Assembly (NCBI GenBank): GCA_050049995.1
Contig: JASFVE010000018.1
Location: forward strand, 1 to 27,889
From: Chlamydiota bacterium
Lineage (GTDB): Bacteria; Chlamydiota; Chlamydiia; Chlamydiales; SM23-39
Direction: 5' to 3'
Length of the DNA stretch: 27,889 bases
Shown here one piece after another: positions 713 to 15,099 of this stretch. The position numbers and the translations under genes are program-made. Position 1 is the first letter of the stretch. The number at the start of each line of letters is the position of its first letter. The notes beneath the pieces are model-generated. The model searched no databases. It worked only from the letters and a program-made list of their open reading frames with translations, and was not told the origin of the DNA.

Positions 713-1528
713 TCATGTAAGAATTTTTAATTTAGACCATTTTTCGAAAAAAGATTGCAGATCAAAAGAAGCGATATTTATCTTTTCAATGAAGTCTTGA
801 AAAGCTATTGGTTTTTCCAATAATTGAAGAGTTTCATACTCTCTCTTGAAAAGACTTTTATAAACCACTTTTTTCTCCCATCGAAATAATATGTAATAAA
901 AATTACCTTTTTCCAATTCTGGAAAGTTGTTGTCCAAATAAAAATTTTCTGAATTTTGTAGAACTTCTTGCCTAAAAGTAAAAATATCAAAAGGCAAGTT
1001 AAAAAGATGAGCATGAGGCTGGAGAGAAATTTTTGTCGTTAACTCTAAGTTTTGCACGGAAGGATATTCTGCTGAAAAAAAGCTGAGCATATATCCATAA
1101 TCCACTTTTGATGCCTCTAAAATGAATGGCTTCTCCATTTCATTGGGATAATGATCTTCTACCCACTTTGCCATGTTCTCCCCTAATATGTAGAGCGACC
1201 AACTGCTAGGGGGATACTTTTCTAAATATCTTCTGGCGATTTTATGTTCAAAATCCTTTTCTCCAAAAAGCCTAACTAATAAAGGGAAGTCATTTTTTAA
1301 ACAGCTGACTAGTCTAAGCCAGTATTGTTCATTGTAAATAGCAACTCTTTGAGCAGAAGTTAAATACTTGCCTGGTTTTACATATTGTTGGGCTGTGTCT
1401 TTATACTTAGCTTTTAAAACAGGAAGATTTAGCTCGTCCCACCCTTCCGTATCGTCTGAAATGGCTTTTCCAAACCAGCTTTGCAGTTTAAGCAAATTTG
1501 CAGGAACTTTAGGATCTAGGAGATACAT
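713..1528 (-). CDS. DUF2063 (HvfC/BufC-type) MNIO partner / precursor-recognition protein
   Basis: RVAIYNEQYWLRLVSCLKNDFPLLVRLFGEKDF...YLEKYPPSSWSL matches the DUF2063 N-terminal pattern. It overlaps the DUF692 gene by 20 nt, the usual gene pairing. Confidence 0.85.
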   Translation of the reverse strand: MYLLDPKVPANLLKLQSWFGKAISDDTEGWDELNLPVLKAKYKDTAQQYVKPGKYLTSAQRVAIYNEQYWLRLVSCLKNDFPLLVRLFGEKDFEHKIARRYLEKYPPSSWSLYILGENMAKWVEDHYPNEMEKPFILEASKVDYGYMLSFFSAEYPSVQNLELTTKISLQPHAHLFNLPFDIFTFRQEVLQNSENFYLDNNFPELEKGNFYYILFRWEKKVVYKSLFKREYETLQLLEKPIAFQDFIEKINIASFDLQSFFEKWSKLKILT

Positions 1529-2354
1529 TTTCTATTTCCTGTTGAAATTGTTTAGCTTTTAAGGCTTCTTTGCAGGTGTCTTCAAAACTTAAAAAATGGT
1601 CATCCCACTCCAATAAAGTAGATACTCCACCTGTTTTTGGATACACTTCTTTGTAAATTTGCCATACTTCGTCACAAACATAATTGTTATGGGTGTCGAT
1701 AATAAATTTATCGTAATTTGAATGGCCTGCTAAATGGATTTGCAGGACTCGATCGAAAGGCAAGTTTTCATAGTATTTTTCAGGTTCAAATCCATGATTC
1801 TTGCTGGAGACATAGATATTATTTACATCCAACATCATGAAAATATCTGATTTTTCTACGACAGCTGTATAAAACTCCCATTCAGGCATTTCATCTTCTT
1901 GGAAAGCTGCGTAGGAAGATACATTTTCTAAAGCAAAAGGCACTTCTAAATAATCTTGCACAATCTTTACCCTTTCTACTACATAGTCAATGACTTCTTT
2001 AGTATAAGGCAATGGTAGAAGATCATGGTAATGAGAGCCAGGGACCCTTCCCCAACACAGATGATCTGAAATCCAGGGTGATTTTGTCTTACGAGCCAGC
2101 TCTTTTATTTTTTTTAAATAATCAAAATTAATAGGGTCAGGACTTCCAATAGCTAAACTTACCCCATGCATAACAACAGGATAGGTTTCTAATATTTTTT
2201 CTAAATTTCTAATGGGAGGACCATCTATTAGAAAATTCTCACTGATAATTTCAAACCAGTCGATATCTGATTTTTTCGCAAATATTTCCGGATAGTGAAC
2301 CGGCCTTAACCCAACTCCGATTCCTAAATTTTTAATGTTTTGATTTTTTCCCAT
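1509..2354 (-). CDS. DUF692 multinuclear non-heme iron oxidative enzyme (MNIO; MbnB/TglH/ChrH/HvfB/BufB family)
   Basis: GIGVGLRPVH, WFEIISENF, HGVSLAIG, SDHLCW, DLLPLP, LENVSSY, LDVNNIYV, QIHLAGH, IDTH and LLEWD give the full set of family motifs including the iron ligands. Confidence 0.95.
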   Translation of the reverse strand: MGKNQNIKNLGIGVGLRPVHYPEIFAKKSDIDWFEIISENFLIDGPPIRNLEKILETYPVVMHGVSLAIGSPDPINFDYLKKIKELARKTKSPWISDHLCWGRVPGSHYHDLLPLPYTKEVIDYVVERVKIVQDYLEVPFALENVSSYAAFQEDEMPEWEFYTAVVEKSDIFMMLDVNNIYVSSKNHGFEPEKYYENLPFDRVLQIHLAGHSNYDKFIIDTHNNYVCDEVWQIYKEVYPKTGGVSTLLEWDDHFLSFEDTCKEALKAKQFQQEIENVSPRS

Positions 2355-2361
2355 ATAAAAT

Positions 2362-2391
2362 TAAGGCAAAAAGGAAACCCTTTCTGCCTTA
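2362..2391 (-). terminator. 13-bp stem-loop between precursor and MNIO gene (leaky terminator or mRNA-stabilising hairpin)
   Basis: The minus strand reads TAAGGCAGAAAGG-GTTT-CCTTTTTGCCTTA (one G-U pair), followed by ATTTTAT and the MNIO ATG. Confidence 0.7.
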
Positions 2392-2397
2392 TGAATA

Positions 2398-2739
2398 TTA
2401 GTCGTTATAGAATTTACCGCAGCGTTGATCTTCTGGTTTTTGATTATCTTCAGCATCTCTTCCAAAGATTTTATTTCTAGTTTCATCTCTTCCATTGCCA
2501 TTAGAGCAGCCACCGTTGCCGCAGCTTCCGCTACTGCATGAGCTTTTGCTGCTGCATGAGCTTTTGCTACTGCAAGATCCGTTGCCACAAGATCCTCGAT
2601 CTTGCTTTTGATCTTTTGTACATTTAGACATAGCTAGCAAGCTGTTTAAATCAAGATCATCTGTATTATTTTGAGCTGCGATACAAGCACCCGATGCTAA
2701 TCCGATCATTGCTATCTTTAATAGATCCTTTTTCTTCAT
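2398..2739 (-). CDS. Putative secreted Cys/Ser-rich RiPP precursor peptide (113 aa), MNIO substrate
   Basis: ATG at 2739 follows an AAGGAGAG Shine-Dalgarno. Signal-like N-terminus MKKKDLLKIAMIGLASGACIAA; six regularly spaced Cys in a Ser/Gly core; immediately upstream of and co-oriented with DUF692-DUF2063. Confidence 0.85.
   Translation of the reverse strand: MKKKDLLKIAMIGLASGACIAAQNNTDDLDLNSLLAMSKCTKDQKQDRGSCGNGSCSSKSSCSSKSSCSSGSCGNGGCSNGNGRDETRNKIFGRDAEDNQKPEDQRCGKFYND
2530..2574. repeat. 18-bp tandem repeat (2.5 copies) encoding the SCSSKS units
   Basis: gctactgcatgagctttt / gctgctgcatgagctttt / gctactgca, flanked by related GSCGNG-coding blocks at 2513-2529 and 2579-2595. Confidence 0.9.
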
Positions 2740-2922
2740 AATTTTTTCTCTCCTTGAATGGGTTAAAGTTAATAAACCTCTAAACCCGCAAAGTATAATC
2801 AAGATTTTTTTTTGTCCAGCTTGATTTAAAAAAATAAATTTACATTTAAACAGTTTTATTAACTTTTTTAAAAGGCTAGTTTTTGTTAAAATAATTAAGC
2901 AATTAATTAATATTAATTTAAT

Positions 2923-6504: not shown

Positions 6505-6533
6505 TTGACAAATCTTTTGTTGTTGTTTATTGG
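6505..6533 (+). promoter_or_regulatory. Possible promoter of the + strand porin
   Basis: Perfect TTGACA at 6505-6510 after an A-rich UP-like tract. The -10 at 17 nt spacing (TATTGG) is weak. Confidence 0.3.
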
Positions 6534-6570
6534 TTGGTTCAAGAAGAGAGAATTAACCTATGTGGAAGTC

Positions 6571-7767
6571 ATGAAAAAACTACTTTTACCTTTATTAGTT
6601 GTTTCCACTGCAGTGTTTGCAGACATTAACCCTGCAGCAAAACTTGTAGCTAGGAACACAACACAAAATACGTATGATGATCAAAAAATACCATGCGGAA
6701 CTTATGTGAATCCGCTAACAGCTCAAAAAGGAAATGTTTTTTTTGAAGCTGAGTATATTTACTGGAAACCAGTCGCTAAGATTCCTTACGCAGTCGTTTC
6801 TGATCAATATCAACAACCTGATACTGCAGGAACTTTATTCTCTATTACAACCAACCGAACTATTGAACGAGTAAATTTAAAAGCCAAATCTGGTTTTAAA
6901 GTTGGTTTTGGTATTTACCTTCCTCCAGAAGGATGGATGACATCTGGTGAATATACCTGGATTAAAGGCACTAACAGAAGTACAAGTTATGGCGAACCAG
7001 TGAACACCTTAACTAATGCAGCTTCCACGAAAACTTTAGATGCTGTTTGGAGAACAGAAGGTATAGGCGATAACTCTGGCACTATTGAAAGATTAACTAG
7101 TGCAAGCGCAAAACAACACTTTAGCTACCAAGTATTTGATTGGGTACTTCAAAACACTATTTATTGGAAAAAACGTTTTACTTTTACGCCTTACTTTGGT
7201 GTAAGAGGTGCTTGGATTACTAACCAATTGGATGTTACCTATCTTGGTATTGACCAAGGTGCATCTGCTACTGTTAATGTTTCTGACATAGCAAGGGTGC
7301 AAAGCAACTATAGAGCTTGGGGTATCCGTGGTGGATTCAGAGGAATTTGGGTCTTAGGATATGGTCTTGAGATTTTTGGTAATGCTTCTATGTCATTAGT
7401 ATATGGTAAGCATGACATCAGACAAAGAGAAAATGCCCTTGCACTATCTGCAACCTCTCCTGCAGATGCATTTTTAAACTTTTCTACTACCAGTGCCAAT
7501 GACTGGTATGCTCTTAGAGAAGCATTTCAGTTAGCTTTAGGTATGGAGTGGGGTCGGCACTTCAGCTGTGATAAAGTCTACTTTGGACTTAAGGTTGGCT
7601 ATGAAGCCAATATTTGGCCAGATGTTATCCAACTTAGAAAACTGCAAAAACAAAGAAATTTTGCAGGATCTGATGCTCTTGGAACACCTGCTAACGAGCC
7701 ACTATTAGACTTTAACAGAACTTTTGCTCTACATGGTCTAACTGTAGGCGCAAGACTTGATTTCTAA
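6571..7767 (+). CDS. Lpg1974-family / MOMP-like outer-membrane beta-barrel protein (paralog 1, divergent)
   Basis: Signal peptide MKKLLLPLLVVSTAVFA, AEYIYWKP, SGFKVGFG, FTPYFGVRGAWI, VGYEANIW, and a C-terminal HGLTVGARLDF beta-signal. Confidence 0.85.
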   Translation: MKKLLLPLLVVSTAVFADINPAAKLVARNTTQNTYDDQKIPCGTYVNPLTAQKGNVFFEAEYIYWKPVAKIPYAVVSDQYQQPDTAGTLFSITTNRTIERVNLKAKSGFKVGFGIYLPPEGWMTSGEYTWIKGTNRSTSYGEPVNTLTNAASTKTLDAVWRTEGIGDNSGTIERLTSASAKQHFSYQVFDWVLQNTIYWKKRFTFTPYFGVRGAWITNQLDVTYLGIDQGASATVNVSDIARVQSNYRAWGIRGGFRGIWVLGYGLEIFGNASMSLVYGKHDIRQRENALALSATSPADAFLNFSTTSANDWYALREAFQLALGMEWGRHFSCDKVYFGLKVGYEANIWPDVIQLRKLQKQRNFAGSDALGTPANEPLLDFNRTFALHGLTVGARLDF

Positions 7768-7895: not shown

Positions 7896-9236
7896 ATGCA
7901 GGATTCTAACATTACAGCAATACTTCTTATGGCTGGCATTGGAAGCCGCTTTCAAAGCTCACTTCCCAAGCAGTACCATAATTTATCAGGAAAAAAAGTA
8001 TACTTTCACACATTAGATATTTTTTTAAAATCCAATTTATTCCAGGAAATTATTTTAGTTTGTGACGAAAAATTTACAAAAATGGTTGCTCATGAAGTAC
8101 AAAGTTTTACCCATTGCAAAGTCATTTCTGGTGGAAAAACAAGACAGGAGTCTTCCTATTTAGCACTGCTTGCCTGCCCAAAAAACACAGACTATGTAGT
8201 TATTCATGATGGTGTAAGGCCTTTTGTAAGCAGGCGTATTTTAGAAGAAAACTGTCAAAAAGTCCTTCAATACAAGGCTGTAGATACCTGCATTAAAAGC
8301 GCTGACACTATTGTCCACTCTAAAAATAATGCCCATATTAATGCCATCCCTCCCAGATCGGAATATCTAAGAGGACAAACACCTCAAAGCTTTAGCCACT
8401 CACTTATTAAACAAGCACATGAAAAAGCCATAGCAAATGCTATAAAGGATGCTTCCGATGACTGCCAATTAGTTCACAGGCTAGGACACGAAATAGCTAT
8501 TGTCGAAGGAGAAGAAAAAAATATAAAAATTACCACTAACCTGGATCTATTTCTTGCAGAGCAAATTTTTCGCCTACCCAACAAAAACATTTCATCTTCT
8601 AAAACTTCTCTCACTGGAAAGACTTTCATAGTTGTAGGATCTACAGGAGGCATAGGCAAAGAGATTTGCCGTCAATTAGAAGAATCCTTAGCCAAGGTTA
8701 TCCCTTTATCCAGACATAGTACTGAAATTACCCTCGACTTAAGTGATATGGCAAGTATTGAAAAGGCATTTCAAGAGGTGTTTTTAAAATATGGAGAGGT
8801 GGACGGTTTAATTAACGCAGCTGGGATCCTTGTAAAAAAACCACTAGACATAATTTCCCTTAAAGAGATCAAGCAAACGTTACAAGTCAATTTAACTGGT
8901 GTTATTTTATCCTGTAAGCACGCCAAGCTTAAACCCCAAGGCCATATAATAAATATCGCCTCTTCTTCTTATTTTAAAGGAAGAAAAGACTATGGCATCT
9001 ATTCTTCCACTAAAGCTGCTCTTGTCAACTTTTCACAAAGCTTGGCTGAAGAAAAGAAAGACCTTTCAGTTAATATTGTAGTTCCTCAAAGAACGGATAC
9101 TAAAATGAGAAGAGATCATTTTAATGATGACAACAAAGACTTGTTACCCCCTCAAGAAGTGGCCAGAAAAATTATTTCTGTATTGCAATCTGAAAATTTA
9201 AGTGGAGATATAATAGAAATAAGGGCTCAAAATTGA
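7896..9236 (+). CDS. Bifunctional IspD/TarI-type cytidylyltransferase + SDR reductase (Bcs1/Acs1-like CDP-polyol synthase)
   Basis: N-half has MAGIGSRF..PKQY, GGKTRQES, HDGVRPF, QTPQSF, SDD and NIKITT. C-half has GSTGGIG, NAAG and the catalytic YSSTK. Confidence 0.85.
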   Translation: MQDSNITAILLMAGIGSRFQSSLPKQYHNLSGKKVYFHTLDIFLKSNLFQEIILVCDEKFTKMVAHEVQSFTHCKVISGGKTRQESSYLALLACPKNTDYVVIHDGVRPFVSRRILEENCQKVLQYKAVDTCIKSADTIVHSKNNAHINAIPPRSEYLRGQTPQSFSHSLIKQAHEKAIANAIKDASDDCQLVHRLGHEIAIVEGEEKNIKITTNLDLFLAEQIFRLPNKNISSSKTSLTGKTFIVVGSTGGIGKEICRQLEESLAKVIPLSRHSTEITLDLSDMASIEKAFQEVFLKYGEVDGLINAAGILVKKPLDIISLKEIKQTLQVNLTGVILSCKHAKLKPQGHIINIASSSYFKGRKDYGIYSSTKAALVNFSQSLAEEKKDLSVNIVVPQRTDTKMRRDHFNDDNKDLLPPQEVARKIISVLQSENLSGDIIEIRAQN

Positions 9237-9281: not shown

Positions 9282-10550
9282 TTAGAAATCGAATCTAGCA
9301 CCTACAGTAAGACCATGAGTTAACAATGATCTTGTCCACATGCTCATCATGTCACCTGTATTTGGTGTTTGAGATCCAGCATATTCAGCTGTACGGATAG
9401 CATTGAAAAAGTTAGGCCATACGTTTAAGTCATAGCCTAGATTCAAACCAAGGTAGTATCCGCAGTCACCAAAATGAGCACCCCAATTAAGGCCAACACC
9501 CATTTCCCAAACAGTCTGGAAGTCAGTTACTTTAAACGATCTTGTTAATGTATATGGAAAAGACTCAGTAACAAAAACGTTAGTACCTCTAGCCAAGACG
9601 CTTTCTTTATGTTCATATTGGAACTGACCAATTAAAGCAGCTACACCACTTTTTCCATAAAAGCCAAAGCCCCAACCAAGATCTACATTAGAATTAATAC
9701 CTGAATGAAGACCCACACCTAGGTTCATGTGATTAGCTATATCAACATGGTTAGTAAATGGAACTGTACGTCCATCAGATGTTGAGCCGTATAAGTAGTC
9801 AACTCTTAAGTCAGCTTTTACCCAAGCAAAACGAACCCCAACATATGGGCTATAGGTAAATCTGTTGCAAGCAAATGTCTTTTGAAAATCAATGTCTAAA
9901 ACATTTTCTCTATGTCTTTGAATGGAACTTGCTGATACTGGTAAACCTTCATAATCAGCAAAACCAGTTGGTGGTGTATTAGTCATCCATACAGCATCAA
10001 CATAAGATCTTTCTTGTACTGGAATTCCGTTATCAACCCCTGCTCCAGAAACGCTATCTGTTCCATTGGCTTGGTATTGTCTATAAGTTGCAAGTAAGTT
10101 AGAGCAATCTGAAAAGTAAATTCCAAGATTTAATCTATAACCAGAGTGAGCATTCAACTCTGTTGTTCTTACTTGTGCATTAAATGCAGTATAGTCAGCA
10201 TCTAATAGGTCATATGGAGGAGATGCATATCTAAATATTGTATATGGCACAGTTGTGTATGTTTTCCAATACAGATATTCACCTGCTAAGGTTACATAAC
10301 CACATTTTGCTGGAAGAGGAAGCATAGGGCAGCAAGTAAGGTAATCACTGCATGTGCAGCTTGAAGGAGATTTTTTGCACTCCTTTTTTGGACATTTGCA
10401 TACCTCTTGGCATTCCTTTTTTGGACATCCACTTTTTGAATAACTTCTATTCCCATTTCTCATTGCAGCTACATCATTTGTGTCTGCAAAAGCCATATTT
10501 GCTATAGAAGCCATAGCAAAAAATACGGCCATCATAAACTTAAGCCTCAT
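9282..10550 (-). CDS. Lpg1974-family / MOMP-like beta-barrel protein (paralog 2, Cys-rich N-terminus)
   Basis: GGAGG SD before ATG 10550, signal peptide, GEYLYWK, HSGYRLNLG, RFAWVKADLRVDYL, and C-terminal HGLTVGARFDF. Confidence 0.88.
   Translation of the reverse strand: MRLKFMMAVFFAMASIANMAFADTNDVAAMRNGNRSYSKSGCPKKECQEVCKCPKKECKKSPSSCTCSDYLTCCPMLPLPAKCGYVTLAGEYLYWKTYTTVPYTIFRYASPPYDLLDADYTAFNAQVRTTELNAHSGYRLNLGIYFSDCSNLLATYRQYQANGTDSVSGAGVDNGIPVQERSYVDAVWMTNTPPTGFADYEGLPVSASSIQRHRENVLDIDFQKTFACNRFTYSPYVGVRFAWVKADLRVDYLYGSTSDGRTVPFTNHVDIANHMNLGVGLHSGINSNVDLGWGFGFYGKSGVAALIGQFQYEHKESVLARGTNVFVTESFPYTLTRSFKVTDFQTVWEMGVGLNWGAHFGDCGYYLGLNLGYDLNVWPNFFNAIRTAEYAGSQTPNTGDMMSMWTRSLLTHGLTVGARFDF
10377..10428. 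repeat. Direct repeat encoding CPKKEC twice (33-bp period)
   Basis: gcactccttttttggacat (10377-10395) and gcattccttttttggacat (10410-10428). Confidence 0.85.
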
Positions 10551-10720
10551 ATAAGCCTCCTTTTTTACTTTGGTGTATAACAAATATAATTTATTTATAC
10601 ATACTTTTTTTTAAAACTTTTTTCTGACAGGACTTTTTCTTATATGAATTAACACGAAAGTTATAAGTAAAAAGCCTCTAGAAAAGTATGTTTTCTTAAT
10701 ACTTGTTTAATAAAAGTGAA

Positions 10721-10785
10721 GTGGATTGTTAAATCCACACAAGAAAATAGAAAATTACGAAGTAGGCATTAGAAAATAATGCCTA
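10721..10785 (-). terminator. Two hairpins downstream of paralog 3
   Basis: TAGGCATTA-GAAAA-TAATGCCTA (10763-10785) and GTGGATT-GTTA-AATCCAC (10721-10738). U-tracts are imperfect. Confidence 0.5.
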
Positions 10786-10833
10786 TTATTATCTTTTAGT
10801 TGTAAAAGATTCATCTAGAAAGTTGACTTTGGT

Positions 10834-12102
10834 CTAAAAATCTATTCTTGCTCCTAATTTAAGACCATGTGTCAATAATGATTCAGTCCAACTGCTCATA
10901 AGGTCTGTCTGGTTAGGCATCTGTAATGATACATTAGTATCATCTCCTCGATATTCGCTTTGACGAATCGCTGTAAAAAACCTTGGCCATACACTTACAT
11001 CATAACCTACCTTTAGATCGAGGTAATATTTACAGTTTTGAAAGTGGCGCCCCCAATTAAGGTCGACTCCAAGCTCCCAATTTGTTTGAAAATTAGTCAC
11101 TTTAAAAGAGCGATTAGTCGTATAAGCCACTCTTTGAAAATAAGTCGATGTTGGCCTATCTGAACTGTCTACCACATCTTCTTTGTGAGCATACTGAAAT
11201 TGTCCAATTAGTGGAGCTAGAGCTATTTTTGAGTTCACTCCAAATCCCCAACAAAGTTTGATATTAGAGCTCAAACCAGCGTGTAGGCCCACTCCAAGGT
11301 TCATATGGTTCGCTATATCCACATGATTTGTAAATGGAAGGGGTAGATTTCCCTGAGTGTCATTAGAGGATCCTAGTAAATAGTCCACTCTTAAATCAGC
11401 TTTCAGCCAAGCAAAACGAACGCCAAGAAAAGGATTAAAAGTAAATCTGTTGCAGATAAATGATCGTAAAAAATCTACATCGAAAACTGTTTCTCTATAT
11501 CTCTGCGTTGCATTCGCTGAAACAGGAGCTCCCTGATTAAAATTCAGATTTGCTGGATTATTGCTCATCCAGACCATATCGATCCAACTTTTTTCTTGAA
11601 CTGGCATATCATCAGTGGGATCACCACCCGTTGAAATACCATTTGCTCCATGAGCTTGAAATTGCCTTAATGTCCCTAAGAAAAGCCAATTTTTAGAAAG
11701 ATAAATACCTAAGTTGATTCTATATCCACTATGAGCATTTAATTCAGTGCTTTCTACTTCCTGATTAAATGGTTCTGAACTATTAATTAAGAGAAAAGGA
11801 GGCGCCGCATATTTTAATATCGCATAAGGAATCTCCGTGTATGCCTTCCAGAACAGATACTCACCTGCAAAAAATACGTACCCATTTTTATTAGGAAGGG
11901 GAAGCATGGGGCAACATGTTTTATAGTCGGAACATCTACATTTTGATATATAGTGACACTCTTTCTTGATATCTTGCCGCTGCTGGAGAAAATACCCATT
12001 TTTTTCTTGCACATCCGCTTCATTATCACCGGTGCTAGCCAAAGCAATATTGCTCATAAAAAGCATCATAAAAAATACAACAGCCTTAAAATTAAACTTC
12101 AT
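10834..12102 (-). CDS. Lpg1974-family / MOMP-like beta-barrel protein (paralog 3)
   Basis: Start MKFNFK aligns with paralogs 2, 4 and 5. Same conserved blocks; ends HGLKLGARIDF. Confidence 0.88.
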   Translation of the reverse strand: MKFNFKAVVFFMMLFMSNIALASTGDNEADVQEKNGYFLQQRQDIKKECHYISKCRCSDYKTCCPMLPLPNKNGYVFFAGEYLFWKAYTEIPYAILKYAAPPFLLINSSEPFNQEVESTELNAHSGYRINLGIYLSKNWLFLGTLRQFQAHGANGISTGGDPTDDMPVQEKSWIDMVWMSNNPANLNFNQGAPVSANATQRYRETVFDVDFLRSFICNRFTFNPFLGVRFAWLKADLRVDYLLGSSNDTQGNLPLPFTNHVDIANHMNLGVGLHAGLSSNIKLCWGFGVNSKIALAPLIGQFQYAHKEDVVDSSDRPTSTYFQRVAYTTNRSFKVTNFQTNWELGVDLNWGRHFQNCKYYLDLKVGYDVSVWPRFFTAIRQSEYRGDDTNVSLQMPNQTDLMSSWTESLLTHGLKLGARIDF

Positions 12103-12127
12103 ACAAAAAAGCCTTTTTTGAGTGTTT

Positions 12128-12156
12128 TGTATAGCAAAATATTTTTTTTTAATCAA
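12128..12156 (-). promoter_or_regulatory. Putative promoter of paralog 3
   Basis: TTGATT-17 nt-TATACA with a TG extension, conserved in the duplicated upstream region of paralog 4. Confidence 0.55.
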
Positions 12157-12291
12157 AATTTTGTTAAAATTTATTTTTACTTTTCTTGTAAATTATTCTG
12201 GTTAATATAAACTTATGTTTTTTCTGATTATCTTTATCATACTTTTTAAACAGCAGATTTAATCCTGAAAAACAAGATTCAAGTTAATACT

Positions 12292-13557
12292 TTAAAAATC
12301 AAATCTAGCACCTAAATTAAGCCCATGTGTTAATAACGATTCAGTCCATTTGCTCATTATATCTACTGTATTGGGGACTGAGAGAGCATGAGTTCCAGAC
12401 CTTGTAATTTCACTTTGTCGAATGGCCGTAAAAAACTTAGGCCATACACTCAACTCATATCCAACTTTGAGTCCCAAATAATAATCGCAGTCTTTAAAAT
12501 GATGCCCCCAATTTAAATCCACTCCAAATTCCCAATTTGTTTGAAAATTAGTTATTTTATAAGAGCGCTCCATTGTGAACCTTCCTGGAAACCCTAGAGG
12601 AGCTGCAACAGTAAGAAAATCAAACATTTCTTCTCTGTGAGCAAACTGAAATTGTCCGATGAGCGGTGCTATTGCTATTTTACTGCCAATACCAAAACCT
12701 GATCCAAGATCAATATTCGAGATCAATCCTGTGTGAAGGCCTATTCCAAGATTCAAATGATTCGCAATATCAACATGATTTGTAAATGGCAGCCTTAAGC
12801 TACCAAAAGAATCCCCCACTAAATAATCAACTCTTAAGTCAGCTTTAAGCCAGGCAAAACGAACTCCCATAAAAGGATTAAAAGTAAATCTATTACAGAC
12901 GAATGATCGTAAAAAATCTATATCTAACACTTTTTCTCTATATCTTTGCGTAGCATTTGCTGAAACAGGAAGCCCTTGTTGAGCGTTACCACCTCCTATG
13001 ATTGGATATATTGATGCCCAAACCATATCAATCCATCCTCTTTCCTGAAGAGGTATGCTAGAACTATCCCCACTCCCTGAAGTTCCATCTGTCCCATGTG
13101 CTTGAAATTGCCTAAATGTTGCATTTATAAGCCAACAATTTGGCAAATATGCAGCTAAATTTAGTCTATATCCTGTATGTGCATTGAGCTTTACAGTTTT
13201 TACATCCTTATTATAATAAACATAGGCTGGATCAGATTGCTCATCTACAAAAGGGGGCACTGCAGCATTCAATATGGCATAAGGGACTAAAGTATATGGT
13301 TTCCAATAAAGATACTCACCTGCTAAAACTACATAACCATTTTCATTAGCAAGAGGAAGAGAGGGACAACATGTTCTATAGTCTGAGCATGAGCATTTTG
13401 ACATATAGTCACACTCTTTCTTTTTACTTTCTTGATACGTGGGGAAATATTCTTTATTTTCTTTTCCCTCAACTCCATTAATATCTTTACTGGCAAAAAT
13501 AATATTAGCAGTAGAAAGCGCGATAAAAAATATGGAAGCTTTGAAATTTAACTTCAT
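12292..13557 (-). CDS. Lpg1974-family / MOMP-like beta-barrel protein (paralog 4)
   Basis: Signal peptide, GEYLYWK, PFTNHVDIANH; ends HGLNLGARFDF. Confidence 0.88.
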   Translation of the reverse strand: MKLNFKASIFFIALSTANIIFASKDINGVEGKENKEYFPTYQESKKKECDYMSKCSCSDYRTCCPSLPLANENGYVVLAGEYLYWKPYTLVPYAILNAAVPPFVDEQSDPAYVYYNKDVKTVKLNAHTGYRLNLAAYLPNCWLINATFRQFQAHGTDGTSGSGDSSSIPLQERGWIDMVWASIYPIIGGGNAQQGLPVSANATQRYREKVLDIDFLRSFVCNRFTFNPFMGVRFAWLKADLRVDYLVGDSFGSLRLPFTNHVDIANHLNLGIGLHTGLISNIDLGSGFGIGSKIAIAPLIGQFQFAHREEMFDFLTVAAPLGFPGRFTMERSYKITNFQTNWEFGVDLNWGHHFKDCDYYLGLKVGYELSVWPKFFTAIRQSEITRSGTHALSVPNTVDIMSKWTESLLTHGLNLGARFDF

Positions 13558-13581
13558 GCAAAAAGCCTTTTTTGAGTGTTT

Positions 13582-13610
13582 TATATAGCAAAGAAATTTT
13601 TTTTTATCAA
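13582..13610 (-). promoter_or_regulatory. Putative promoter of paralog 4
   Basis: TTGATA-17 nt-TATATA with a TG extension, homologous to 12128-12156. Confidence 0.55.
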
Positions 13611-13839
13611 AATCTATTTAAAATATTTTCTTTTCAAATTTAAAAACTAAAATGCAGATCTCCAATATTAAAAATAAATGCCATTAACCCTAGCTAAGCT
13701 ACATTGCTTGTAATAATATTTATAGAAGTAATTTAGGTTTTTTTGACTTCCAAGCACAAAAACATCACTCTTTTTAACAGCGATCCATTTACAAGCAGAA
13801 TTTTTCAAAGCAGGAAAATAGATATCATTTTAAATATTT

Positions 13840-15099
13840 TCAAAAATCAAACCTCGCACCTAAACTAAGACCATGTGTTAATAAAGATTCAGTCCAGGTG
13901 CTCATTATATCGTTGTAATTTATAGGAATAAGCGGTTCCGTATAGAACGTCGCCTGACGAATGGCATTAAAAAAATCTGGCCAGATATTCACATCATATC
14001 CCGCTTTTAACCCAAGAAAATATTTGCAGTCATTAAAGTGGTATCCCCAATTCAGATTGATTCCCAATTCCCAATTTGTTTGAAAGTTAGTTGCTTTAAA
14101 TGACCGTTCAAGCGTTGGAGTTGTAATTGTAAAAGGAGTTTGTTCAATATCAAAAATATCTTCTCTATGCGCATATTGAAATTGGCCAACTAATGCACTA
14201 AACGCAAATTTTCCGCCAAACCCAAACCCCCAACCAAGATCTATATTGGAAGTCAGGCCAGCATGAGCACCTACTCCAAGATTCATATGGTTGGCAACAT
14301 CCACATGATTAGTAAAAGGAAGACCGGAATAAGTATTAGTATTAGAATGATTGATGAGATAATCAACTCTTAAATCAGTTTTGAGCCAAGCAAAACGAGT
14401 GCCTAGAAAAGGGTTAAAAGTAAAGCGATGGTATGTAAATGACCTCATAAAGTCTATATCCAAAACTTTTTCTCTATATCTCTGCGTTGCATTTGCAGAT
14501 ATGGGATGACCTTCAAAGCCAGTTCCTGGAGGGGCACCGGGAGTTGAGAGATCTGCAGGATAGTTATCCATCCAAACCATATCTATCCAAGAATACCCTG
14601 GCCTCGGCTCTCCACTAACGGCTCCACCAACTGAAATCCCATCTGTTCCACGCGATTGAAACTGCCTATATGTTCCAAGTAAAAGCCAGCAATCTGAAAA
14701 ATAAAAGCCCAAATTTAGTCGATATCCAGTATGAGCATGAAGTTCTACTGTTTTTACTTCTTGATCAAAAGGAATGTAGCCCTTGGTATAGGAGGGAACG
14801 GTATCATTTCCTTCTATAACATATGGTGGTACTGCAAATTTTGCTATCGCATAAGGAATAATCGTATATGTTTTCCAATAAAGATACTCTCCATCCAAAA
14901 ACAAATAGCGATTATCTTTAATTGGTAAAGGAAGAGTTGGGCAACATGACTGTGCGTATTCTTTTTGTTTATCTAGCTCTCTTTTTCTTTCGTTGAGAAA
15001 GCTTTTTGATTGGGGAGTAATGTCGTTTTCCATATTTGCATAAACTATGTTAACCATAGAAAACATGGTAAAAAATAACGACGCAAACTTCAGCTTCAT
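13840..15099 (-). CDS. Lpg1974-family / MOMP-like beta-barrel protein (paralog 5)
   Basis: GAGG SD, signal peptide, GEYLYWK; ends HGLSLGARFDF. Confidence 0.88.
   Translation of the reverse strand: MKLKFASLFFTMFSMVNIVYANMENDITPQSKSFLNERKRELDKQKEYAQSCCPTLPLPIKDNRYLFLDGEYLYWKTYTIIPYAIAKFAVPPYVIEGNDTVPSYTKGYIPFDQEVKTVELHAHTGYRLNLGFYFSDCWLLLGTYRQFQSRGTDGISVGGAVSGEPRPGYSWIDMVWMDNYPADLSTPGAPPGTGFEGHPISANATQRYREKVLDIDFMRSFTYHRFTFNPFLGTRFAWLKTDLRVDYLINHSNTNTYSGLPFTNHVDVANHMNLGVGAHAGLTSNIDLGWGFGFGGKFAFSALVGQFQYAHREDIFDIEQTPFTITTPTLERSFKATNFQTNWELGINLNWGYHFNDCKYFLGLKAGYDVNIWPDFFNAIRQATFYTEPLIPINYNDIMSTWTESLLTHGLSLGARFDF

Follow-up and report, generated by a model that had tools for sequence, protein, structure and literature searches.

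A chlamydial operon of the bufferin-2 captophorin class with a candidate lineage-specific precursor

The window, that is, the whole 27,889-nt stretch of chlamydial DNA analyzed here, carries three genes encoding a Cys-rich candidate precursor, an MNIO (DUF692) enzyme and a PME1 partner. Sequence comparison assigns this operon to the bufferin-2 captophorin class and places its precursor outside the Buf1, Buf2 and EGKCG families. We consider it probable that the operon falls within the bufferin-2 branch of the captophorins and has a lineage-specific precursor, whose Cys residues would be converted to 5-thiooxazoles and which, exported by Sec, would buffer periplasmic copper. What appears to be new is a precursor subfamily that has no match in Pfam, in NCBIfam or in the available part of the precursor table of PMC13097082, from which the motifs AMSKC, KSSCSS and GSCGNG are absent. 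The gain is incremental, as earlier work has documented the class, its chemistry and its occurrence among Chlamydiota.

Organization and expression signals of the operon

An ORF check of the window recovered three frames, all on the minus strand, that span positions 713-2739. The tight, co-oriented packing described in the sequence-only reading was confirmed: a gap of 43 nt separates the precursor and enzyme genes, and the enzyme and partner genes share 20 nt (1509-1528). The features of the locus are:

713-1528, minus strand: PME1 partner, 271 aa, with an N-terminal DUF2063 and a C-terminal RRE-like domain
1509-2354, minus strand: enzyme, MNIO (DUF692) of BufB type, 281 aa
2362-2391, minus strand: hairpin of 13 pairs between the precursor and enzyme genes
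2398-2739, minus strand: precursor of 113 aa, read from the ATG at 2739 and matching no model in Pfam or NCBIfam
2750-2755, minus strand: ribosome-binding site AAGGAG, 10 nt upstream of the precursor ATG

The precursor frame has an alternative start, a TTG at 2802. Upstream of the precursor, approximately 80 nt including the AAGGAG differ by one base from the corresponding DNA of a genome of the same genus (G401). The hairpin has an energy of -19.2 kcal/mol (z -4.2; 1 of 200 shuffles was as good) and was returned as a terminator-like match by a terminator scan. G401 retains it with an altered loop (z -5.6), and it probably keeps enzyme mRNA less abundant than precursor mRNA. A promoter scan gave 8 sites against 9.7 expected.

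Purifying selection acts on all three operon genes. Compared with G401, dN/dS is 0.11 for the precursor, 0.05 for the enzyme and 0.18 for the partner, and precursor codons 1-56 show nine synonymous and no nonsynonymous changes. Because these ratios are low, the three genes are more than chance ORFs. Recent transfer, or residence on an island, was rejected given the GC content of the operon (35.1%, genome 34.9%), the single chlamydial clade of the enzyme, and an upstream neighbor in common with G401.

No DoxX, sigma factor or copper gene was found beside the operon in a Pfam/NCBIfam search of the window; two DoxX genes are present elsewhere in the genome. Positions 1-708 of the window encode an AbiEii-family type IV toxin-antitoxin nucleotidyltransferase that is cut by the contig start. 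This gene ends 4 nt from the partner stop, and the available part of the G401 locus has no similar DNA. Further along are five PF05150 paralogs (Legionella-type major outer membrane protein; 6505-7767 and 9282-15099), four of them in tandem, and an IspD-like cytidylyltransferase fused to a short-chain dehydrogenase (7896-9236).

The enzyme and its partner

Assignment of the second gene to DUF692, with metal-ligand motifs, was borne out by a PF05114 score of 340.7 bits (cut-off 25) and by alignment of the ligands. The enzyme scores 319.9 bits against NF050167, the equivalog model of the bufferin maturase BufB (cut-off 310). This is the sole equivalog passed; HvfB (242, cut-off 360), ApyH, ChrH and the methanobactin enzyme MbnB (48.3 bits, cut-off 325) were missed. 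TglH has nine iron ligands (available part of PMC10880893), and alignment to structure 8hci maps these to H63, H98, E143, D176, H207, E249, N179, D220 and H222. All nine positions are invariant across 62 aligned homologs, and the metal site is, as judged from the alignment, intact.

According to the available part of PMC13097082, the catalytic Asp precedes a Phe in enzymes of the EGKCG type and an Asp in those of the Cys-Lys (Buf2) type, and only one MNIO group conserves a second Arg. Equivalents of FonB-Phe250 and FonB-Arg16 were assigned by motif from this source. The window enzyme has an EWDD motif, comprising the base D251 and the D252 of the Cys-Lys group, and a GLRP motif that lacks the second Arg. 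As in Bufferin 2 enzymes, the FonB-Phe250 position is thus occupied by Asp, and the FonB-Arg16 position lacks Arg. The assignment could be checked because a second chlamydial clade, with ERDF and GFRR at these motifs, passes the HvfB model and has EGKCG-like precursors. Together, EWDD and GLRP therefore identify the window enzyme, by motif, as an enzyme of the Buf2 branch.

The enzyme is the only MNIO in its genome. The sequence-only reading had called the locus chlamydial and, among the matches listed, eight of the nine closest named records (65-77% identity) are indeed titled as such. The remaining record of this closest group is titled 'uncultured bacterium', and the other 71 among the matches listed share at most 56% identity.

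The partner, correctly read from the sequence as a DUF2063 protein overlapping the enzyme, scores 53.9 bits against PF09836 (cut-off 27.2), with DUF2063 at residues 15-122. A model built from an 84-row alignment has a pLDDT of 96, and its C-terminal domain of three strands plus helices is RRE-like. A Foldseek search with this model returned TglI (8hi7 and 8hci, E 7e-7 and 9e-7) and NGO1945 (3dee, E 3e-6) as the only three matches under 0.001; a search of the PDB with the partner sequence found nothing real. On the modeled fold, which is like that of TglI and NGO1945, this protein is a PME1 partner. Complex prediction with enzyme, partner and precursor gave a score of 0.27, the mark being 0.32, and counts neither for nor against a complex.

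The precursor

The first gene had been read as encoding a secreted, Cys-rich peptide of 113 aa. Its length and Cys content stand (nine Cys, one within a signal-like stretch, C19, and eight in the core), and "secreted" is a call by inspection: the basic, hydrophobic and small-residue layout of the N-terminus (approximately residues 1-22) suggests a Sec signal. The remainder comprises AMSKC (C40), a core in which two GSCGNG(S/G)C pentad pairs surround SCSSKS hexads, and a charged tail with C107. The inner Cys residues C51, C56, C62, C68, C73 and C78 are spaced by 5, 6, 6, 5 and 5. The residue after every core Cys is small (T, G or S), and FonBC prefers a small residue after Cys (available part of PMC13097082). 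Tat export was considered because RRDF leaders occur in related precursors from Acidobacteria and Planctomycetes. It was rejected on account of the KK in the leader and of a search that found no TatC in the host genome. A lipoprotein was likewise rejected by inspection, the SGA before C19 not being a lipobox.

No Pfam match was found at E up to 0.01, DUF2282 included, and no NCBIfam match. NF050166 (BufA2) gave no match to the precursor at E up to 1, nor did NF050137 or NF050188, and the EGKCG motif is absent. By this HMM search the precursor is not a member of Buf1, Buf2 or EGKCG. An NF050166 search of the host genome also gave no match, but the same search missed its Caulobacter control and was set aside in favor of a profile built for this analysis. 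The predicted model has a pLDDT of 51.8 and is mostly coil, consistent with predicted disorder. In the ESM Atlas the best match reached 0.79 and an HvfA-named cluster 0.78, all under the lead level of 0.9.

A profile that leaves out the window precursor, G401 and P0001 finds the window precursor at 53 bits (E 2e-14), and the precursor is the only strong profile match in its genome. A 17-row precursor profile retrieved 43 database homologs, two of which are source-named Chlamydiales, the rest being without a name. In a 45-row alignment the leader and AMxKC are conserved and the core is variable. Most rows end in RKSAAQK, an end that the window precursor lacks, and most subfamily members have no C-terminal Cys. 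The G401 precursor has two extra hexads (11 Cys) and that of P0001 has five inner Cys; these two and the window precursor all retain the first and last Cys. Based on these alignments, the precursor represents a subfamily at the family level in which the ends are conserved and the Cys/Ser repeats of the core vary.

Comparison with characterized systems

The general traits of a captophorin or bufferin locus are present: a BufB/HvfB-group MNIO with its ligands, a PME1 gene next to it, and a Cys-rich precursor directly upstream. With Bufferin 2 (BufA2-BufB2-BufC2 of Caulobacter vibrioides; the BUF_6/12Cys, Cys-Lys captophorins; available parts of 10.1101/2024.03.18.585515 and PMC13097082) the operon shares the gene order precursor-MNIO-PME1, the absence of DoxX and sigma factor genes, an enzyme that passes NF050167, has its catalytic Asp followed by another Asp and lacks the second Arg, a putatively exported precursor, and hexad Cys six residues apart. 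Unlike Bufferin 2, its precursor has eight core Cys rather than six or twelve, none of them before Lys, and no NF050166 match; it is predicted to be disordered, not a small folded domain; and its repeat number varies within the genus, with homologs that often persist without an MNIO.

Similar to the EGKCG captophorins (oxazolin HvfA, fontiphorin, gonophorin; available part of PMC13097082), the core is of low complexity and variable in its repeats, contains two CGxGxC pairs spaced as in KCGEGKCG, and has a small residue after each Cys. The operon departs from this Buf_EGKCG/oxazolin type in lacking EGKCG repeats, an NF050137 or NF050188 match and an HvfB-type enzyme, the window enzyme falling below the HvfB cut-off without the RR and DF signatures. 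Bufferin 1 has the same class and gene order and a possible first-to-last Cys disulfide, but its DUF2282 precursor with four Cys has no counterpart here, nor is there a DoxX, SigF or NrsF gene nearby. TglHI and MbnBC have the same iron ligands and partner fold. The window enzyme, however, scores much lower than their models require (MbnB 48 of 325), and TglHI and MbnBC differ in chemistry and act on substrates that no signal peptide exports. Compared by description with the 'CxxxxC' family of PMC12452194, the precursor has three CxxxxC spacings and lacks the Lactamase_B_2 gene that neighbors 54% of that family's precursor clusters (available part of the same source).

Distribution in Chlamydiota

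Among 401 genomes sampled from the phylum, 139 have a PF05114 match, and operons of this kind are common in environmental chlamydiae. In the host's family, 28 of 103 genomes have the enzyme. With chlamydial pairs already tabulated as well, the locus belongs to the captophorin class and is not the new RiPP system that had been proposed. We examined 112 loci of the main chlamydial MNIO clade, a non-random set made up of the 30 best scorers, same-family hits and picks across families, leaving out duplicates, L051 and eight second-clade loci. The partner directly follows the enzyme in 108 of the 110 loci with enough downstream DNA, and by a heuristic rule a candidate exported Cys peptide precedes the enzyme in 100 of 107. 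In a quick tree of 189 enzymes, 114 rows form one clade (SH-aLRT 100) that is chlamydial except for one unclassified record. Its sister is a group of 11 mostly verrucomicrobial rows (support 95), and the outgroup enzymes around it have largely BufA2-like precursors. Given the limited outgroup sampling, this tree suggests that the operon was inherited within Chlamydiota.

Of 85 loci outside the host's family, 53 have a Buf2-like precursor whose six Cys sit in a helical scaffold, as against none of 22 within the family; the six-Cys profile was seeded from 45 of the loci outside the family and is circular for those. All seven tested six-Cys precursors from outside the family match BufA2 at 32-41 bits, under the cut-off of 60, and hexad precursors of the host's family touch NF050166 weakly (L034: 23 bits). 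The Cys context is Lys/Ala in 183 of 291 cases in the six-Cys precursors and Ser/Asn/Gly in 129 of 197 in the window subfamily. Six-residue Cys spacing, the spacing of Buf2, accounts for 168 intervals in the six-Cys precursors. Descent of the window subfamily from Buf2 by repeat drift is plausible from these comparisons.

Several other arrangements were observed. The Buf2-like six-Cys loop inside a helical scaffold, which most other chlamydial loci have (L003, L020, L022, L021, L023 and many others), often lies after, or is fused to, a second low-complexity precursor, and some scaffolds lack the Cys loop. Members of the second chlamydial MNIO clade (L180, L181, L183, L186, L187, L189, L190, L191) are 34-38% identical and have EGKCG-like precursors; the three tested pass the HvfB cut-off, and G160 carries both clades. 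One genome (G304) contains five MNIO loci (L046-L050) with short divergent precursors, one of the enzymes having an internal stop. Precursors with Cys hexad repeats are also present in Alphaproteobacteria MAGs (L079, L085) and Legionella spp. (L101, L107), and those of L079 and L085 contain SCxxKS units like those of the window precursor. Locus L266:3345-9952 (G315:C36) is a hybrid RiPP cluster with an MNIO of the main chlamydial clade and its partner. Its precursor combines a pair of NHLP leader domains with a short four-Cys core at the C-terminus, and the cluster also encodes a YcaO/SagD protein of 728 aa, a SagB dehydrogenase and, in convergent orientation, an MFS transporter. A single peptide may there be the target of both azole-forming and MNIO enzymes, and this cluster is possibly more novel than the window operon.

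Chlamydiae feature in earlier surveys, of which parts were available. The Planctomycetes/Verrucomicrobia/Chlamydia group is named among MNIO hosts in 10.1101/2024.03.18.585515. The available text of PMC12452194 does not mention chlamydiae, and its genome table gives DUF692 plus DUF2063 with no recognized precursor in five of eight Parachlamydiales rows. PMC13097082 has 15 rows with 'chlamyd' plus Waddlia, Estrella and Criblamydia; six-Cys precursors, uncategorized, were present for three of the six partner accessions tested. Conserved 'RiPP-like' clusters were reported in two chlamydial groups (10.1101/2021.12.21.473556), and we infer that these are the same loci. The available parts of PMC13229535 and PMC10989515 add nothing further on MNIOs in chlamydiae. 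In the literature searched, mostly outside subscription papers, no characterized chlamydial MNIO product was found, in line with the sequence-only reading, which knew of no characterized RiPP from the phylum; no Protochlamydia copper transcriptome was found either, and no RNA data were listed among sequencing runs.

Precursors without the enzyme

The expected linkage of precursor homologs to DUF692 genes held in part. The precursor profile matches 29 of 103 genomes of the host's family; 19 of these have an MNIO, and protein and profile searches found none in 10. The profile was built from enzyme-linked genes, which favors the linked count. DUF2063 is absent too in the five MNIO-less genomes tested of the 10. 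These orphans are unusual because known bufferin precursors almost never lack the enzyme (0 of 864 Buf2 and 21 of 4072 Buf1 genomes; PMC12452194 Table 3, as available), the comparison genomes being closed and the chlamydial ones MAGs.

One site bounded by an EamA gene has precursor, enzyme and partner in five genomes and the precursor alone in eight. In six of the latter (79-99% complete) no MNIO was found anywhere, and two have one elsewhere. Placed on the EamA tree, these states suggest no fewer than three independent losses of the enzyme pair, if these were losses rather than gains. Complete orphans from MNIO-less genomes contain 3-12 core Cys in seven of eight cases, the exception (G432) having lost every core Cys, and all eight keep the RKSAA-like C-terminal motif. 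In genus g11 (L257, L258, L259, L260) the precursor follows a heavy-metal P1B ATPase, directly in three MNIO-less genomes and with a two-gene insert between them in G338, which has the MNIO. The g11 ATPase passes TIGR01512 (Cd family) and not TIGR01511, and is thus of the Cd/Zn family, not Cu.

Proposed mechanism and alternative explanations

In the reading we favor, an MNIO-PME1 heterodimer would use O2 and a mixed-valent iron centre in the cytoplasm to act on precursor Cys, oxidizing them to 5-thiooxazoles (-4.03 Da each), with the hairpin making precursor mRNA the major transcript. The modified peptide would exit via Sec, and the disordered multi-ring product would bind excess periplasmic copper. 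Six inner Cys would be modified and C40 and C107 would form a disulfide, the weakest step, for a total of approximately -26 Da; repeat slippage would alter the number of binding sites. The sequence-only reading had MNIO and partner oxidizing Cys, with a loss of about 4 Da per residue and absorbance near 300 nm, to give heterocycles that bind metal. The evidence fits this, with the absorbance put at 305 nm, and, by analogy, narrows it to the bufferin-2/Cys-Lys 5-thiooxazole branch. All characterized MNIO-PME1 products contain 5-thiooxazoles, across unlike precursors, and generally bind Cu; fontiphorin has seven rings and binds up to four Cu (available part of PMC13097082). In Buf2 the central four Cys lose 4.03 Da each, and a disulfide probably joins the first Cys to the last, as it may in Buf1 (available part of 10.1101/2024.03.18.585515). 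Since most members of the chlamydial subfamily lack a C-terminal Cys, the disulfide would hold for three near relatives only.

The host genome (98% complete, 122 contigs) has cytochrome bd, which fits O2 use. No heme-copper oxidase was found in it which, together with the missing TatC, suits Sec export and detoxification over copper supply. Heme-copper oxidase is present in 25 of 28 MNIO genomes and 43 of 75 others, kin that are not independent, and the host genome is an exception. Its CPH-type copper ATPase is split over two contig ends, and copper ATPase co-occurrence across the host's family showed no clear pattern. Several observations count against the proposal. The precursor fits no described family and lacks Cys-Lys, even with the Cys-Lys-linked Asp retained in the enzyme; the g11 neighbor ATPase is of Cd/Zn type; and no DoxX, sigma factor or copper gene lies beside the operon.

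The orphans raise the question of what the peptide does by itself, as 10 of 29 homolog genomes without an MNIO mean that it may not need modification. An MNIO-independent role that the conserved ends would carry, either thiol metal binding or a disulfide-linked envelope role, with modification optional and dropped by several lineages, would explain the EamA site, the repeated losses, the retained Cys and C-terminal motif, and the position of the g11 orphans directly after the ATPase. Yet the orphans may be recent relics, as G432 illustrates, the genomes are MAGs, and the window precursor lacks the C-terminal motif while its enzymes are under strong selection; we regard this explanation as unlikely. 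We would give a somewhat better chance, still doubtful, to a chlamydial family of exported Cys-peptides in two states, either MNIO-modified (thiooxazole) or unmodified yet useful after repeated independent deletion of the pair, with a Cys-Lys-type enzyme retargeted to Ser-Cys-Ser repeats.

The shift in Cys context from Lys/Ala to Ser/Asn/Gly, the Cd-family ATPase in g11 and the same-clade enzyme in the YcaO/SagB cluster of G315, which indicates that the clade can be re-used, would also suit a peptide that is modified to another structure or for another job, such as Zn/Cd/Co binding, redox or HOCl defense, or proteolysis to short ring-bearing peptides. This is distinctly unlikely in our estimation, given the constancy of 5-thiooxazoles in the characterized products and the unchanged active-site residues of the window enzyme. 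Very improbable indeed is that the adjoining gene is not the substrate and that a true six-Cys Buf2-like one was lost or lies in unassembled DNA. In favor of this, the enzyme keeps its Cys-Lys signature, other chlamydial families commonly have six-Cys precursors, and the assembly is fragmented. Against it, the six-Cys type is missing from every examined locus of the host's family, the best genome-wide match to the six-Cys profile scores 14.5 bits as compared with 42-130 for true members, and the dN/dS of the enzyme implies that a substrate exists.

Biological significance

Amoebae poison engulfed bacteria with copper. Phagocytes are described as doing likewise (available part of 10.1101/2024.03.18.585515). 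If the copper-buffering reading is true, roughly one in three sampled chlamydial genomes would carry an inherited peptide of this kind, a contribution to symbiont survival that has yet to be studied. For enzymology, captophorin substrates would be extended to Ser-rich repeats. The two-state family, if true, would provide a natural test of the benefit of rings over plain thiols, and no ribosomal metallophore would have been shown earlier in a chlamydial symbiont with an obligate intracellular life.
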